Source: a virus (taxonomy: Duplodnaviria; Heunggongvirae; Uroviricota; Caudoviricetes). From it: a DNA stretch of 6,104 nucleotides. Position numbers and translations under genes: made by a program. A model generated the notes under the pieces. That model worked only from the letters and a program-made list of their open reading frames with translations. It ran no database searches and was not told the origin of the DNA. The stretch covers positions 1 through 6,104 of the IMG/VR virus record IMGVR_UViG_2579778721_000001, one strand, 5' to 3'. Below are positions 1,139-6,104 of the stretch, piece by piece; the stretch's first letter is position 1, and each line of letters starts with the position of its first letter.

Positions 1139-1600
1139 CTACTGGTTACGTTTCTTTAGTGCCAGCATGTTCTCGAAGGCTTCCTCGTAGAGCTTGTTTA
1201 GTCCACGTAGCTGGTTAAGGAGTTTGGCTTTTTCTGACGCAGGTAGAATCTCGAAGAGGTTAAGTAACTCTGCCTGTTCTTCATTGACCAGCCTCCATCC
1301 TTTGCCTGAAAAGTTATCATCATAAGTATCTGATGATCTTACATAATTCATTAAGTCTTTAAGGTCTTCTCGAATGTCCTCTGGTTTTACCTTTAACAGA
1401 GCCGCAAATTTTAGCGCAGCGTCGGTATTTACCGGTATCTTGCCGTTCAGATACTGGCTAACGGTGCCTTGAGATTCGAATCCCAACAACTCAGCCGCCA
1501 GCTCTTGAGTCAGCTTCAGCTCTTTTTTTCTTGCATTCCATGCGGCTTTTAAATTCTTGCTCGCTTCTGGAGTTGCAATCACTTCGCGTGTTTTTTTCAT
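1139..1600 (-). CDS. Prophage repressor, HTH XRE/cI-type N-terminal domain, 153 aa, no S24 peptidase domain (DicA/RacR-type)
   Basis: ORF in track. The HTH segment QELAAELLGFESQGTVSQYLNGKIPVNTDAALKFAALLKV matches the lambda cI helix-turn-helix pattern ([39 protein letters not shown]). Divergent from a Cro-like gene. At 153 aa it is too short for a LexA-like C-terminal domain. No SD upstream of the ATG, consistent with a leaderless mRNA. Confidence 0.85.
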   Translation of the reverse strand: MKKTREVIATPEASKNLKAAWNARKKELKLTQELAAELLGFESQGTVSQYLNGKIPVNTDAALKFAALLKVKPEDIREDLKDLMNYVRSSDTYDDNFSGKGWRLVNEEQAELLNLFEILPASEKAKLLNQLRGLNKLYEEAFENMLALKKRNQ

Positions 1601-2392: not shown

Positions 2393-2463
2393 CTCGCAAT
2401 ATTCATACCGGATCACTTCCGGCAATTTGTGAGTAAAAAGATTCGGTATCAGAAGAGGTGAGT

Positions 2464-3504
2464 ATGGCTAACGCCTGGCTCAGATTATGGCATGACATGC
2501 CAAATGACCCTAAGTGGCGAACAATTGCCAGGGTGTCAGGGCAGCCAATTGCAACAGTGATGGCAGTGTATATCCACCTTCTGGTGAGCGCGTCACGAAA
2601 TGTCACGACATGTCACGGCGTGTCACTACGTGGTCACATTGATGTCACGACGGAAGATTTAGCAAGTGCGCTTGATGTGACGGAAGAAGTAATTGATTCA
2701 ATTTTACAGGCAATGCAGGGGCGGGTACTTGATGGAGATTTAATCACCGGATGGGAAAAACGCCAGGTACTGAAAGAGGACAATGGCAACGTTTCACAAA
2801 CCGCGAAATCCCCGGCAGAGCGCAAGAGAGCGCAGCGCGAGAGGGAAAAATTACGAAAACAGAATGAGGGGTGTCACGACGAGTCACGCATATGTCACGA
2901 CATGTCACGACGAGTCACGACAGATAAAGATACAGATAAAGAATTAAACCCCACACATAACGCGCACGTGCGCGAGAGTGCTCCGACCAGTGAGTCGAGT
3001 GGTACGCCGTTGCAGGCAGCAGAACCTGCATCCCTGGATGGACTGAGCGAACCCATCGGGAAATTTCCGATGGTCGATGACTGGCATCCGTCGCCGGATT
3101 TTCGACGACGGGCTGCGTTGTGGGGGATGGCTTTGCCGGAGCCGGAATTTACACCTGCTGAACTTGCCGCTTTCCGGGACTACTGGGCAGCGGAGGGGAA
3201 AGTTTTCACGCAGGTTCAGTGGGAGCAGAAATTCGCCCGTCACGTAAATCACGTCAGGGCGCAGGTTAAGCCAGTCAGCAAGGGGGTAAACCATGCAGCA
3301 GCACCAGGTGGCACCGCATCACGGGCAGTTCAGGAAATTCGGGCAGCACGTGAGCAGTGGGAACGTGAAAACGGATTTATCAGCGACGGAAACGGTCTGG
3401 AAGCTGTGGGAACTCATGGGGGAGGTTTATTCGAACCGCTGGACCCAGAAGAACGGGGCCGCACCTTCGAAGCTCTGGATTGCACAGATTGGCGCGATGA
3501 CTGA
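2464..3504 (+). CDS. Replication initiator (lambda O analogue): N-terminal DNA-binding region plus DnaT-like C-terminal domain; contains the putative origin
   Basis: ORF in track (GTG 2458; ATG 2464 preferred, GAGG SD at 2455-2458). Residues around FPMVDDWHPSPDFRRRAALWGMALPEPEFTPAELAAFRDYWAAEGKVFTQVQWEQKFARH align closely with the E. coli DnaT C-terminal domain ([59 protein letters not shown], from memory). Iteron arrays lie inside the gene, as in lambda O. Confidence 0.8.
   Translation: MANAWLRLWHDMPNDPKWRTIARVSGQPIATVMAVYIHLLVSASRNVTTCHGVSLRGHIDVTTEDLASALDVTEEVIDSILQAMQGRVLDGDLITGWEKRQVLKEDNGNVSQTAKSPAERKRAQREREKLRKQNEGCHDESRICHDMSRRVTTDKDTDKELNPTHNAHVRESAPTSESSGTPLQAAEPASLDGLSEPIGKFPMVDDWHPSPDFRRRAALWGMALPEPEFTPAELAAFRDYWAAEGKVFTQVQWEQKFARHVNHVRAQVKPVSKGVNHAAAPGGTASRAVQEIRAAREQWERENGFISDGNGLEAVGTHGGGLFEPLDPEERGRTFEALDCTDWRDD
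2591..2651. repeat. Iteron array 1: six direct copies of GTCAC(G/N)(A/N)C at 10-11 bp phasing
   Basis: GTCAC starts at 2592, 2602, 2612, 2622, 2633 and 2644. Spacing is not a multiple of 3, so the repeat is at DNA level, not protein level. Confidence 0.7.
2871..2921. repeat. Iteron array 2: five direct copies of GTCACGAC-type repeat at 10-11 bp phasing
   Basis: GTCAC starts at 2873, 2883, 2894, 2904 and 2914. Same orientation as array 1. Immediately followed by an AT-rich tract. Confidence 0.75.
2922..2947. other. AT-rich tract with direct repeat CAGATAAAGA x2 next to iteron array 2 (candidate DNA-unwinding element of the origin)
   Basis: cagataaagatacagataaagaattaaa is far more AT-rich than the surrounding coding sequence and directly abuts the last iteron, mirroring lambda ori architecture (iterons followed by an AT-rich region). 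Confidence 0.5.
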
Positions 3505-3958
3505 GCAGCAAATCCGACAGGTCTGCCGCCAGTGCATGGACCGCTGCCGGGCGGGTGAAACATGGCCTCCGGACCTGGCTGAGTTTGTGGCGCTGATTTC
3601 AGAAAGCGGGGCCAATCCATTTGGCCTGACGGTGGATGCTGTGATGGAGGAGTACCGCCGCTGGCGTGATGAGTCCTGGCGATATGACGGAAGCGACAAA
3701 TATCCGTGGCCTCAGCCTGTGCTGTACCACATCTGCCTCGAAATGCGTACCAGAGGGATTGAGCGCCAGATGACGCAGGGTGAGTTAAAACGACTTGCGG
3801 AACGGCAACTGACGAAATGGGCAAAGCATGTTGGTAACGGGATGAGTGTTCCGCCAGTGCGACGACAACTGGAAGGGGCGAAACACCCGCAAGGGCCAAC
3901 GCCAATTGAACGGCTGAAACAGGAATACGAACGCCGGAAGGCAGCTGGTTTTATTTGA
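3293..3958 (+). CDS. Lambda P-like replication protein (helicase loader), 221 aa
   Basis: ORF in track. Strong SD AGGGGG (3281-3286) 6 nt before ATG 3293. Colinear similarity to lambda P from memory: WIAQIGAMTEQ vs WVLAFRENGITTMEQ, YPWPQPVLYHICLEM vs YPWKSNAHYWLVTNL, ELKRLAERQLTKWAKHVGNG vs EFRRKAADELVHMTARINRG. The alignment register supports the 3293 start over the downstream ATGs. Confidence 0.7.
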   Translation: MQQHQVAPHHGQFRKFGQHVSSGNVKTDLSATETVWKLWELMGEVYSNRWTQKNGAAPSKLWIAQIGAMTEQQIRQVCRQCMDRCRAGETWPPDLAEFVALISESGANPFGLTVDAVMEEYRRWRDESWRYDGSDKYPWPQPVLYHICLEMRTRGIERQMTQGELKRLAERQLTKWAKHVGNGMSVPPVRRQLEGAKHPQGPTPIERLKQEYERRKAAGFI

Positions 3959-3991
3959 ATCTGAGAAACGATTTTGTCGGAGGAAATTTTA

Positions 3992-4762
3992 ATGGAAACC
4001 GTATTTGACGCACTGAAAGCAATGGGAAAAGCCACATCGGTAGAACTGGCCGCGCGACTTGATATCAGTCGTGAAGAGGTTCTCAACGAGCTGTGGGAAC
4101 TCAAAAGAAATGGCGTCGTTGATAAAACTGGTCACACCTGGTTTCTGGCTGGCGAAGGTGAATCCCGGGTAACCGAAGAGCGGCCAGTAAAATCTGAAGC
4201 ACAGGATATGCTGACCGGGGAGGTCGAACAAAAAGTTACCGCAGACATGATGATTGAGTTTATCGGTCAGGATGGTGCTAAAACGTGTGAGGAACTGGCG
4301 GGTAAGTTCGGCGTCAGTACTCGCAAGGTTGCCTCCACGCTGGCGGTGGTAACCGCAACGGGGCGGCTGGCACGCGTTAATCAGAACGGTAAATTTCGTT
4401 ACTGCATGCCGGGCGATAATTTACCAGCAGAGCCGAAAGCCGCGCTGGTAACGGAAAGTGATGGTAAGGCCTTTCCTCAGCCAGCAGGTGCTGCGTTACC
4501 AGTCCGGGAAGCCGCAACACAGGAAGAAATTAAAACAGAAACTGTGGCGGACATTGTGCAGCCGTTGCCATCGTTTACCGAAACGCAAGCAGATGAGCTG
4601 ATTTTTCCGTCCCTTCGCAGGGCAAACCTGGCGCTGCGCAGGGCGAAAAGTGATGTTCAGAAGTGGGAGCGAGTCTGCGCCGCGCTGCGGGAGGTGAACA
4701 AGCACCGGGATATTGTTCGACAGATTACTGATTCTTCCCGCCGTGTTGTATCGGAAAAGTGA
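3992..4762 (+). CDS. Hypothetical protein with two tandem winged-helix-like modules (256 aa from ATG 3992; the track ORF begins at TTG 3974)
   Basis: ORF in track. GGAGG SD (3979-3983) 8 nt before ATG 3992. Two internal HTH-like repeats (residues about 7-50 and 90-135). Confidence 0.7.
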
Positions 4763-4777
4763 TTGCCGGAGGCGCTT

Positions 4778-5170
4778 ATGGCAAAAGTATTTACACCAGA
4801 AGAGCGGGAAGAAGTGAAGGCGCGCATTGTGGAATTCGTGCGCCTGAGCGGACGAGAAACTTTTCGACAACTGGCAGATAAAACGGGTGTCAGTAAGACC
4901 GCTATTCGTCGTTTATCTGGTGCGCTTGCGGCCAGTGGTGATGTCTGGCTCTCTGGTTGCGGGGTATTTCCATCAGAGCAGGCGTATCGCGTATGGCGTA
5001 AGACACCGGAGAAGGCTGCTGACCCGACACTGATTCGAAAGTTACCTGACGGAGAAATACGTCGTTACAACAGACGGCAGAACATAATTTGTCGTGAGTG
5101 CCGCCAGAGCGAAGTTATGCAGCGTGTGCTGGCGTTCTATCGGGGAAACTTTCAGGAGGTGATGGAGTGA
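4778..5170 (+). CDS. Hypothetical winged-helix protein with C-terminal CxxC motif (130 aa from ATG 4778; the track ORF begins at TTG 4763)
   Basis: ORF in track. GGAGG SD (4768-4772) 5 nt before ATG 4778. The wHTH module EFVRLSGRETFRQLADKTGVSKTAIRRLSGALAASG is paralogous to module 2 of the upstream protein ([36 protein letters not shown]). Confidence 0.7.
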   Translation: MAKVFTPEEREEVKARIVEFVRLSGRETFRQLADKTGVSKTAIRRLSGALAASGDVWLSGCGVFPSEQAYRVWRKTPEKAADPTLIRKLPDGEIRRYNRRQNIICRECRQSEVMQRVLAFYRGNFQEVME

Positions 5171-5463
5171 GGGTCAGAGTTTATATTGCCGGTCCAATGA
5201 CGGGATATGAAAATTTCAACCGTGAGGCGTTTCACAAGGCGGAAGAGGAACTGAAACGGGAAGGGCATACCGTCTTAAACCCGGCAGTACTTCCGGACGG
5301 GCTGACACAGCCGCACTACATGGATATTTGCATGGCAATGATTCGTTGTGTGGATGCGATTTACATGCTGAATGGCTGGCAGCGGTCAGCGGGCGCTAAG
5401 GCAGAGCTGGCACTGGCGGAGAAACTGGGGCATGCAGTGATTTATCAGGAGGTGGCTCAATGA
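5167..5463 (+). CDS. DUF4406-like protein (nucleoside 2-deoxyribosyltransferase-like fold), 98 aa from GTG 5167
   Basis: Track ORF 5098..5463. Preferred start is GTG 5167, overlapping the upstream stop as GTGA, with GGAGG SD (5155-5159) 7 nt upstream. The N-terminal V-Y-I-A-G-P-M-T-G motif is typical of DUF4406 proteins (from memory). Confidence 0.65.
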   Translation: MRVRVYIAGPMTGYENFNREAFHKAEEELKREGHTVLNPAVLPDGLTQPHYMDICMAMIRCVDAIYMLNGWQRSAGAKAELALAEKLGHAVIYQEVAQ

Positions 5464-5921
5464 GAGAGGTTAACTATGAGGCGCTTCGTGAGGCAGCACA
5501 AAACTATCAGTCGACGCTGGCGTGGTATCAGGCTATCCCGGACAGCCCAAATGCTGAACGGGATTGTGATGCGGCTCTTGCTGCGTTTAAGCGTCACATC
5601 CGTCATCGGGAAGCGGATATTATCGCTGATTTGCTGGATGGACTGGAAGAAGCAAAATCACAACTCAACGAGCAGCGTGAGTATTACGAAGGCGTTATCT
5701 CTGATGGGAGCAAGCGTATTGCTGAACTGGAAGCGCGGGAAGTTCAATTACCGACTCGCTACGACCTTCGATATGGACACCCGATAAATGCAGATGAGCG
5801 ACATGTCATGATACCTAAAGAAAATGGCAGTTGGCTTTACCTGATTGACTTAGAACACGCATTACGCGTCGCTGGCATTCGCATCAAAGGAGAGGAGCAT
5901 GGAAATAAAACCAGAGGATGA
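5460..5921 (+). CDS. Hypothetical protein, 153 aa; N-terminus weakly reminiscent of Ead/Ea22-like phage proteins
   Basis: ORF in track. ATG 5460 overlaps the upstream stop as ATGA. AGGAGG SD (5447-5452) 7 nt upstream. The ALREAA N-terminal motif resemblance is from memory and low confidence. Confidence 0.6.
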   Translation: MREVNYEALREAAQNYQSTLAWYQAIPDSPNAERDCDAALAAFKRHIRHREADIIADLLDGLEEAKSQLNEQREYYEGVISDGSKRIAELEAREVQLPTRYDLRYGHPINADERHVMIPKENGSWLYLIDLEHALRVAGIRIKGEEHGNKTRG

Positions 5922-6104
5922 GTTAAGCAATATCGTTTTATTTCCGGTAAAAGAGGATGACCCTCGTAATCAGGTTAATTTTCTTTATGAGCCATCGGAA
6001 AGACCATATTGTCATCACGCCTCTGTTCGGGTTGACGAAAAAGAGCGTCAGGTCCGCTGTAAAATCTGCGGTGCAGTTGTGGAGCCGTTTGACTGGATGC
6101 TCTC
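5899..6104 (+). CDS. Hypothetical protein with Cys/His zinc-ribbon-like motif, 5' partial (runs off the window end)
   Basis: Manual translation from ATG 5899: MEIKPEDELSNIVLFPVKEDDPRNQVNFLYEPSERPYCHHASVRVDEKERQVRCKICGAVVEPFDWML..., open to the window end. SD AAGGAGAGGAG (5888-5898). Overlaps the upstream gene by 23 nt. Not in the track because no stop lies within the window. Confidence 0.5.
   Translation, partial: MEIKPEDELSNIVLFPVKEDDPRNQVNFLYEPSERPYCHHASVRVDEKERQVRCKICGAVVEPFDWML

Follow-up and report, generated by a model that had tools for sequence, protein, structure and literature searches.

A DUF1627/YdaW gene and a long-form homologue of lambda ren behind the replication genes of a lambdoid prophage

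The window analyzed in our study, a stretch of 6,104 nucleotides from the Caudoviricetes record IMGVR_UViG_2579778721_000001, carries on its plus strand an O-like (DnaT-domain) and a lambda-P-like replication gene, followed by a DUF1627 gene (gene 1, product P1) and then a DUF977 gene (gene 2, product P2). The open reading frames of genes 1 and 2, outlined in a preceding sequence-only reading, are present as described there and correspond to PGAP coding sequences found in identical form in E. coli ABU 83972, WP_000450708.1 for gene 1 and WP_001141099.1 for gene 2. The same reading placed them in the accessory slot 3′ of the replication genes, where lambda has ren, and did so correctly. The features of the locus are the following:

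3979..3984, plus strand: Shine-Dalgarno sequence GGAGGA of gene 1, read from the sequence, 7 nt before the ATG at 3992
3992..4762, plus strand: gene 1, an open reading frame of 256 aa encoding P1
3992..4156, plus strand: module 1, the N-terminal winged helix (P1 aa 1-55; AF2 pLDDT 95-98)
4232..4411, plus strand: module 2, the second winged helix (P1 aa 81-140; AF2 pLDDT 95-97)
4613..4753, plus strand: C-terminal helical hairpin (P1 aa 208-254; AF2 helices 208-237 and 239-254, pLDDT 88-96)
4768..4772, plus strand: Shine-Dalgarno sequence GGAGG of gene 2, read from the sequence, 5 nt before the ATG at 4778
4778..5170, plus strand: gene 2, an open reading frame of 130 aa encoding P2
4796..4969, plus strand: module 3, a winged helix (P2 aa 7-64; AF2 pLDDT ~93-96)
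4970..5071, plus strand: segment additional to lambda Ren (P2 ~aa 65-98), comprising helix 67-81 and the beta-hairpin LPDGEIRRY, from alignments and AF2
5072..5143, plus strand: C-terminal Ren motif N.I..EC[RK].S..M.R.L..Y (P2 aa 99-122), the most conserved region of DUF977

Both Shine-Dalgarno sites are strong, the genes are tightly packed, and a GTGA stop/start overlap connects to the next gene. A promoter-like site was sought in 3500-6104 and none was found, nor do palindromes or repeated operator-like sites flank genes 1 and 2; the sole strong repeats are the ori iterons ATGTCACGAC at 2590-2640 and 2872-2931, inside the O-like gene. Genes 1 and 2 are evidently co-transcribed with the replication genes, within the early rightward operon of a lambdoid prophage. 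In an Rfam and tRNA search of the window no family reached its gathering score and no tRNAs were detected, with nothing found in 3992-5170, and the antisense open reading frames at 4496-4870, 3712-4104 and 3989-4231 had zero PHROG matches.

In regard to family membership, the sequence-only reading could not assign either gene, but both belong over their full length to curated families, gene 1 to DUF1627/YdaW and gene 2 to DUF977/LygF. Gene 1 matches Pfam DUF1627 (PF07789) over all of the model positions (1-155/155), with an E-value of 3.1e-98 and 326.3 bits at a cut-off of 28.1, and phrog_630 over residues 1-252 of its 253 positions (E 2.9e-135). A 100% identical cluster (P0002) has 2240 member sequences. 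Furthermore, 42 full-length relatives with 21-65% identity align with P1 end to end, in agreement with the AF2 model, and its architecture of a wHTH domain, a second wHTH domain, a linker and C-terminal helices is kept in relatives with 24-66% identity. Module 1 (AF2 topology H4-11, E13-15, H16-23, H27-39, E43-46, E49-52) is the best-conserved part of DUF1627, with L34 and W50 invariant in the 43-sequence alignment, while the top PDB sequence-profile matches of module 2 are wHTH domains, namely ADAR1 Zalpha/Zbeta and the AspA and ArsR types. A disordered linker of 25 residues separates the two winged helices, which are not packed together in the AF2 model. Before the hairpin come a disordered linker rich in Pro, Ala and Glu (aa 141-205) and the conserved motif IPSFT...EIRRTK; P206 and R216 are nearly invariant in the alignment. 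The C-terminus of P1 bears no similarity to that of P2 (hhalign probability 0.6%).

YdaW of the K-12 Rac prophage belongs to the same family and occupies the same slot after the replication genes as gene 1. However, the Rac deletion, which joins it to Rz/trkG, has truncated it behind the second winged helix, whereas the copy in the window is full length. K-12 matches cover only positions 1-449 of the query. The only experimental lead on gene 1 is that ydaW is listed among the prophage-gene blockers of RcaT, the effector of retron-Sen2; the truncated, two-wHTH K-12 YdaW, the product of a pseudogene, relieved RcaT toxicity in an overexpression screen (bioRxiv 10.1101/2020.06.22.160242).

Gene 2 likewise matches Pfam DUF977 (PF06163) over the whole model (positions 1-134/134; E 2.1e-41, 141.6 bits, cut-off 22.1), and at full length phrog_142, the 'Ren-like exclusion protein' (E 1.2e-43), to which lambda Ren itself (J02459 40280-40570) matches with 1.6e-41. 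A direct comparison of P2 with lambda Ren by BLASTP gave 4e-9 at 29% identity, and the DUF977 and Ren families align by hhalign with 96.9% probability (E 1.8e-10, 89 columns). The family occurs in Rac-like, Stx and other prophages of E. coli and Shigella, and 24 phage records name the gene as LygF, DUF977 or 'Ren-like exclusion protein'. Gene 2 is thus a long-form homologue of lambda ren, which is also the reason for its location in the position of ren. The two proteins are alike in having one winged helix followed by an invariant C-terminal motif, and their genes are transcribed in the same direction from a slot just 3′ of the replication genes. On the other hand, lambda ren follows directly after P, while in the window P and the Ren-like gene are separated by a DUF1627 gene. 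P2 has 130 aa compared with 96 aa in lambda Ren, with a 14-residue N-terminal extension and ~20-35 additional residues between the wing and the C-terminal motif. Lambda Ren also falls short of the Pfam DUF977 model.

The identity between P2 and Ren is carried mostly by the C-terminal motif. HMMs of the N-terminal wHTH domains alone recognize each other with only ~6-10 bits. Seven positions of the motif (N102, I104, E107, S111, M114, R116 and L118) are invariant in 17 DUF977 and 8 Ren sequences; AF2 predicts helices here at lower confidence (pLDDT 56-76). The segment of module 3 that holds helix 2 and helix 3 (P2 aa 31-55) is instead the second most variable stretch of the family, after the last eight residues (aa 123-130), with a mean column entropy of 1.25 bits compared with 0.35 bits for aa 85-122. 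Such a pattern, a conserved C-terminus combined with a variable putative recognition helix, fits a protein-contact module joined to a specificity module.

The three HTH modules that had been recognized across the two genes from the sequence are confirmed by AF2, which gives three winged-helix folds, all matched to wHTH domains by Foldseek, and the pattern EF..G..T...LA.K.GVS...A.G reported for modules 2 and 3 is literally present in both. The alignment of module 2 (P1 aa 76-150) with module 3 (P2 aa 1-70) has a Smith-Waterman score of 57, compared with 23.3 +/- 4.4 in shuffled sequences (z = 7.6; 0/2000 shuffles reached the observed score), so that the resemblance proposed earlier is significant at a Gumbel p of ~3e-5, as a comparison of single sequences. 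Module 1 is marginally similar to modules 2 and 3 in such single-sequence comparisons, with p ~0.01 and ~0.02, respectively. At the level of families the relationship of modules 2 and 3 changes. The module-2 family HMM scores module-3 sequences with 13.1 bits at most, and the copy in the window with 8.8 bits, while a module-2 profile from 22 of the sequences reaches 21-22 bits on unrelated wHTH domains from the PDB (Zalpha, TFE). Among PHROGs, module 2 fits the MarR type (5.1e-7) no worse than the Ren-like family (2.2e-6). By these scores the resemblance between modules 2 and 3 is one of the wHTH superfamily, which happens to peak in this allele, and the tandem duplication put forward for them finds no support beyond common membership of the superfamily. 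Only modules 1 and 2 look specifically related (hhalign 94%, E 1.2e-7; HMM scores up to 31.9 bits), making an internal duplication within gene 1 plausible.

Both by sequence profile and by Foldseek, modules 2 and 3 have Zalpha domains (ADAR1, ZBP1, PKZ and poxvirus E3) among their best matches. ADAR1 is matched by the DUF1627 profile in HMMER with an E-value of 4e-5, and the TM-scores of Zalpha domains, normalized to the target, are 0.73-0.82 at 1.1-1.6 Å. The Z-DNA contacts of ADAR1 are made by two residues of helix 3, Asn173 and Tyr177, and by Trp195 of the wing. In the HMMER alignment Asn173 and Tyr177 face Ala114 and Ala118 of module 2, although an aromatic residue is kept in the wing at the position of W195, Tyr137 in P1 and Trp in other DUF1627 members. 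Modules 1 and 3 presumably do not conserve the Asn and Tyr contacts either, judging by an alignment to the Zalpha sequence. With these key contacts absent, Zalpha function or Z-DNA binding was rejected, and the likeness reflects the minimal wHTH fold. For P1 as a whole chain, the top Foldseek matches are tandem-wHTH proteins (ScpB, ESCRT-II subunits, the SelB C-terminus and UFL1/DDRGK1), with E-values of only ~1e-3, whole-chain TM-scores of ~0.2 and identities of 15-17%, and nothing pointed to a partner of the kleisin type. Fold searches of PDB and BFVD for a specific functional analogue gave generic wHTH matches only. Likewise, all that PADLOC-DB gave were weak matches with E-values of 4e-5 or worse, and these fell on the wHTH parts of models such as Csa3/CARF and CapH.

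The C-terminal CxxC noted earlier in P2 is present as C105-R-E-C108 (5090-5101) within CRECRQS, yet a role as a functional element finds no support. Its first Cys is replaced by Phe in every Ren sequence aligned (8, plus lambda Ren), its second by Ser in one DUF977 member (P0138), and the only other Cys of P2, C61, is Tyr in most DUF977 members. Zinc binding was rejected, as there are two Cys in place of the usual four ligands, the Cys are not conserved, and the motif lies inside the AF2-predicted helix.

Related DNA is present in roughly half of complete E. coli genomes. In 143 of 143 near-identical contigs genes 1 and 2 are adjacent, which reflects relatedness only. The sequence-only reading implied a two-gene unit and suggested a survey of co-occurrence; among diverse loci, only about one in two has both genes, and about half carry one gene only. 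A profile search of genome contigs with an 8-sequence alignment yielded 11 loci, and in species-representative genomes co-occurrence was 1/11. The idea of an obligate gene pair was rejected on these counts. In 71 other loci, the DUF977 gene comes immediately after an O-like initiator gene 33 times and after a DUF1627 gene 38 times. The replication module immediately in front of the DUF1627 gene is of the O/P type, of the YdaU/DnaC type or one with a single initiator, in loci from Escherichia, Serratia, Citrobacter and Enterobacter. In addition, a recombination breakpoint lies inside gene 2, and its recognition helix is therefore not co-inherited with gene 1. Genes 1 and 2 are independently mobile, each able to stand alone directly after a replication module of any type.

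Genes 1 and 2 are ordinary prophage genes, very common in E. coli and already catalogued. Thousands of E. coli genomes have annotations for both, and the relationship to Ren is already contained in PHROGs and in RefSeq phage annotation, so that the finding as it stands adds nothing new and its remaining value is that of a pointer. Of the uncharacterized prophage genes of E. coli, those of DUF1627 and DUF977 rank with the most widespread, occurring also in pathogens such as the O157:H7 and ST131 lineages, and a single overexpression screen links YdaW to the relief of retron toxicity. Our search of the literature on DUF1627, DUF977, LygF, YdaW and Ren returned no functional study of either family beyond the items cited here.

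In regard to function, ren reportedly confers resistance to Rex exclusion, its defining phenotype and an observation attributed to Toothman and Herskowitz in 1980. The link of ren to Rex exclusion is also echoed, indirectly, in PMC8614690. Lambda ren shares its transcription from pR with O and P, and Rex proteins interacted with O and Ren in a bacterial two-hybrid assay (bioRxiv 10.1101/2021.04.19.439022). A knock-down of ren showed it to be non-essential when Q is supplied (PMC10695390). The reading that we prefer, to which we give about even chances, is that genes 1 and 2, two separate and already catalogued lambdoid accessory genes, have an early counter-exclusion role. Both proteins would be non-essential and made early, and could act as a shield for the replicating phage where the host or a resident prophage has an exclusion or abortive-infection system. 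The homology to Ren suggests that gene 2 would act against, and blunt, exclusion of the RexAB type. The invariant C-terminal helix of P2 could contact a conserved partner, either a sensor of the Rex kind or part of the replication complex, and its variable winged helix could serve for phage-specific recognition of DNA or protein. In P1, the C-terminal hairpin probably dimerizes the protein, which would then present four winged helices, and these may bind nucleic acid or a defence effector.

Alternatively, both proteins could act as ordinary sequence-specific transcription factors and adjust the expression of phage or host genes in early lytic growth. All three folds are canonical wHTH domains whose nearest solved structures are MarR, ArsR, IclR and GntR repressors, a winged helix would suit plain transcriptional regulation just as well, and the variability of the putative DUF977 recognition helix would be expected if DNA specificity diverges. 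However, neither P1 nor P2 has a domain for ligand binding or classical dimerization as in MarR, IclR or GntR, conservation in DUF977/Ren is highest in the C-terminus, outside the HTH, and operator-like repeats are missing beside the genes, the only strong repeats being the ori iterons. YdaW is included among the predicted E. coli transcription factors (PMC9308461), and Ren has been called a transcriptional activator (PMC8614690), but the papers cited for the latter statement deal with Rex exclusion and not with transcription. We consider such a regulatory role rather unlikely, though it is to be reckoned with.

Somewhat more doubtful is the view of both proteins as accessory replication factors, binding for example the origin, the initiator or the helicase-loading complex. 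The genes always lie immediately 3′ of a replication module, with which they are co-transcribed, and initiators and DNA organizers of the ScpB type typically have tandem winged helices. Thomason et al. also state, alongside the two-hybrid contacts with O and Ren, that ren is 'likely involved in DNA replication' (bioRxiv 10.1101/2021.04.19.439022). On the other hand, DUF1627 and DUF977 genes follow three unrelated types of replication module, and a specific protein partner within the module is therefore unlikely; about half of the loci, moreover, have a DUF1627 or a DUF977 gene but not both. Plaque formation does not require lambda ren (PMC10695390), and the nin5 deletion starts within ren and takes out the nin region.

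It is also conceivable, though we regard it as improbable, that the slot 3′ of lambdoid replication modules is a dedicated counter-defence island, in which DUF1627 and Ren/DUF977 would act as two independent winged-helix decoys or masks, hiding the nascent replication complex or its DNA from resident abortive-infection sensors. The targets would then be RexAB for Ren-like proteins and retron-type toxin systems for YdaW-like proteins. Should this be the case, the fast-evolving recognition helix of DUF977 would record an arms race, and a mechanism would be at hand for Ren, a gene unexplained since 1980. Finally, a two-gene, co-adapted prophage defence module for superinfection exclusion, expressed in the lysogen and derived by tandem duplication, is suggested by the high turnover of accessory genes in the slot and by the category of PHROG 142 ('moron, auxiliary metabolic gene and host takeover'), but it is highly improbable given the location of the genes inside the repressed pR operon with no promoter-like site nearby, generic wHTH matches in PADLOC, co-occurrence of ~50% in diverse loci and 1/11 in species-representative genomes, the breakpoint inside gene 2 and the unsupported paralogy of modules 2 and 3.

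Genes 1 and 2 of the window lie in the same frame, with one TGA and five codons between them, and in two singleton database proteins (P0003 and P0121) this TGA is replaced by Gly or Arg. The homologues of genes 1 and 2 are in different frames in Rac-SA53 and Shigella phage 75/02 Stx; the shared frame is therefore not a conserved feature, and both programmed read-through and gene fusion were rejected. The DUF977 allele of the window represents the short linker form of 130 aa, compared with the commoner 138-142 aa, and carries a particular variant of the recognition helix, being otherwise an ordinary DUF977.

In regard to its genomic setting, the window corresponds to the immunity and replication region of a lambdoid prophage, matched over its full length at 99.8% in more than 100 complete E. 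coli genomes, including ABU 83972, where the prophage adjoins an ompW remnant. Among 5426 complete E. coli genomes, 2752 contain related DNA, with a maximum of 8 sites in one genome, and 476 have at least 80% of the gene pair considered here. The genes are ordered as follows:

1139-1600 (minus strand), cI-like repressor
1702-1983, YdaS/Cro-like gene
1967-2392, YdaT-like gene
2458-3504, O-like initiator with a DnaT domain, holding two clusters of probable 10-bp iterons
ending at 3958, lambda-P-like helicase loader
3992-4762 (plus strand), gene 1, with modules 1 and 2
4778-5170 (plus strand), gene 2, with module 3
GTG start at 5167-5170, DUF4406 (nucleoside 2-deoxyribosyltransferase-like) gene, overlapping gene 2 by sharing GTGA with its stop codon, TGA
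thereafter, Ead/Ea22-like gene

The GTGA overlap suggests translational coupling along the operon. Since no promoter-like sites were found from the replication genes to the window end, and ribosome-binding sites are strong at both gene 1 and gene 2, the two genes are assigned to the early rightward operon. The direct repeats of 10-bp period within the O-like initiator gene (2590-2640 and 2872-2931, clusters 280 bp apart, about 3-4 copies in each, consensus ATGTCACGAC) very probably serve as origin iterons in this prophage. A perfect inverted repeat of 14 nt (ACAAAAAAACCGAC / GTCGGTTTTTTTGT, 1081-1114), situated downstream of the cI-like repressor gene, looks like a bidirectional intrinsic terminator and is overlapped by weak sub-threshold Rfam sRNA matches (STnc370, IS128).

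Both ORFs coincide exactly with PGAP-annotated CDSs. Their sequence features are real, yet the genes themselves are ordinary and already catalogued, with nothing new as families, and the sequence-only reading, which could assign neither to a known family, has to be revised. Gene 1 matches Pfam DUF1627 over its full length (E 3e-98), is a member of phrog_630, and belongs to the family of the Rac prophage protein YdaW; the K-12 YdaW copy is truncated past the second winged helix, whereas gene 1 is full length. Among 1.8 billion representative proteins, searched exhaustively, only 183 were relatives at E <=0.001, many of them full length with 24-66% identity and the three-part architecture retained. 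The family is small and, among the loci recovered (Escherichia, Serratia, Citrobacter, Enterobacter and one unclassified isolate), enterobacterial. Unexpected in this respect is Actinobacillus phage vB_Apl-pPE4 (GenBank PP818812.1, 9991-10806), with Actinobacillus pleuropneumoniae as recorded host, 85% DNA identity to the prophage region and 82% identity in its DUF1627 protein.

Gene 2 matches Pfam DUF977 (E 2e-41, full length), named LygF in many phage records, and phrog_142 (E 1e-43), the "Ren-like exclusion protein", which lambda Ren matches at 1.6e-41. BLASTP between gene 2 and lambda Ren gave 4e-9, and profile-profile comparison of DUF977 with the Ren family 96.9% probability (E 1.8e-10), covering all of Ren. 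Judged by these matches, gene 2 is a long-form ren homologue, which explains its position where ren sits, as had been pointed out before.

AlphaFold2 models, built on alignments of 43 (gene 1) and 25 (gene 2) sequences, predict the following parts:

gene 1, aa 1-55, winged helix (module 1)
gene 1, aa 56-80, disordered linker
gene 1, aa 81-140, winged helix (module 2)
gene 1, aa 141-205, disordered Pro/Ala/Glu-rich linker
gene 1, aa 208-254, helical hairpin
gene 2, aa 7-64, winged helix (module 3), pLDDT ~93
gene 2, after aa 64, helix, beta-hairpin and two C-terminal helices, the latter of lower confidence

The ordered parts of gene 1 reach pLDDT ~90-98. Three winged-helix modules across two genes, as originally proposed, are borne out by these folds and by Foldseek, where every match was a winged-helix protein, including for gene 1 some with winged helices in tandem, for example ScpB and UFL1/DDRGK1.

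The pattern shared by modules 2 and 3 is significant in an alignment test on this sequence pair (z = 7.6, p ~3e-5), but the tandem duplication proposed from it did not hold. Profile-profile comparison linked modules 1 and 2 (94% probability, E 1.2e-7), 2 and 3 (82%, E 1e-5) and 1 and 3 (16%, E 1.6e-3), and weak links among all modules are as expected for winged helices. As a control for paralogy, a module-2 HMM was scored on the same scale (Z = 177,635). Module-3 sequences reached at most 13.1 bits (8.8 bits for the window's own), below the 21-22 bits that unrelated solved winged helices (Zalpha of ADAR1 and ZBP1, TFE) scored with the profile from 22 module-2 sequences, while module-1 sequences scored up to 31.9 bits. 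The window's module 2 is the family member closest to module 3 (17.4 bits vs a median of 7.5), and for module 2 a MarR-type PHROG was no worse a match than the Ren-like one. From the HMM control and the MarR-type match, an intragenic duplication within DUF1627 (modules 1 and 2) is plausible, and a duplication between genes 1 and 2 is unsupported.

The CxxC noticed earlier in gene 2 is present (CRECRQS) and belongs to a conserved Ren motif, the C-terminal signature N.I..EC[RK].S..M.R.L..Y found in 25 of 25 aligned DUF977/Ren sequences. This motif is the best conserved part of DUF977; there is hardly any variation over the C-terminal 40 residues, although the last eight are the most variable stretch, followed by the helix-2/helix-3 segment. 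A metal-binding site was considered and rejected, since the first Cys is Phe in all Ren sequences aligned here, the second is Ser in one DUF977 member, the only further Cys is not conserved among homologues, and the CxxC lies within a predicted helix.

Furthermore, the two genes do not always occur together. They are adjacent in 143 of 143 near-identical viral contigs, which is due to the kinship of these contigs and not to linkage; in diverse data sets they are paired only in part. GenBank phage records held both genes in 12 cases, DUF1627 only in 12 and DUF977/Ren only in 13; a Ren-like gene was near DUF1627 in 1 of 11 loci from species-representative genomes; and around more diverse DUF977 alleles DUF1627 was upstream in 38 of 71 loci, with a replication initiator directly upstream in 33. 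The constant feature is the slot, each gene lying directly 3′ of a replication module, be it O/P, YdaU/DnaC-like or a single initiator. A recurrent mosaic breakpoint at ~4874-4889 (gene 2 codons 33-37) lies just 5′ of the recognition helix, and many E. coli prophages, ~94% identical to the window as far as this point, diverge beyond it, where the DUF977 helix-2/helix-3 segment follows. As these matches end within gene 2 before the recognition helix, the helix is not inherited together with gene 1.

Other occupants were also seen. In a Rac-like prophage of Escherichia ruysiae (locus L158, 4992-7070), DUF1627 is followed, in place of the Ren-like gene, by an ORF of 689 aa that carries a P-loop motif (GRRGTGKS) and may be a defence-type NTPase in the same accessory slot. 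Serratia prophages (S. fonticola, locus L161, 3486-3998) carry an extra 157-aa ORF between the P-like and DUF1627 genes, which suggests further turnover.

In regard to function, resistance to Rex exclusion is classically attributed to lambda ren, as reportedly shown by Toothman and Herskowitz in 1980. This link is loosely echoed elsewhere (PMC8614690); lambda ren shares its transcript with O and P, and two-hybrid assays showed Rex proteins interacting with both O and Ren (bioRxiv 10.1101/2021.04.19.439022), while plaques can form without ren (PMC10695390). An overexpression screen against RcaT, the toxin of retron-Sen2, recovered truncated K-12 ydaW among the blockers (bioRxiv 10.1101/2020.06.22.160242). 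We favour, at an even chance, that genes 1 and 2 both encode early, non-essential counter-exclusion proteins; the conserved C-terminus of gene 2 would then be the contact surface and its variable winged helix the specificity element. Plain transcription factors, for all their winged helices, are improbable, and replication accessory factors, encoded directly after the replication genes, are similarly doubtful. A prophage defence module or a duplicated two-gene system is very improbable.

Around 4760-4780, genes 1 and 2 share a reading frame, with only a single TGA and five codons between them. In two singleton database proteins (P0003 and P0121) the TGA is changed to Gly or Arg, which fuses the genes in frame. 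Programmed read-through is nevertheless unlikely, since the two genes are in different frames in Rac-SA53 and phage 75/02 Stx.
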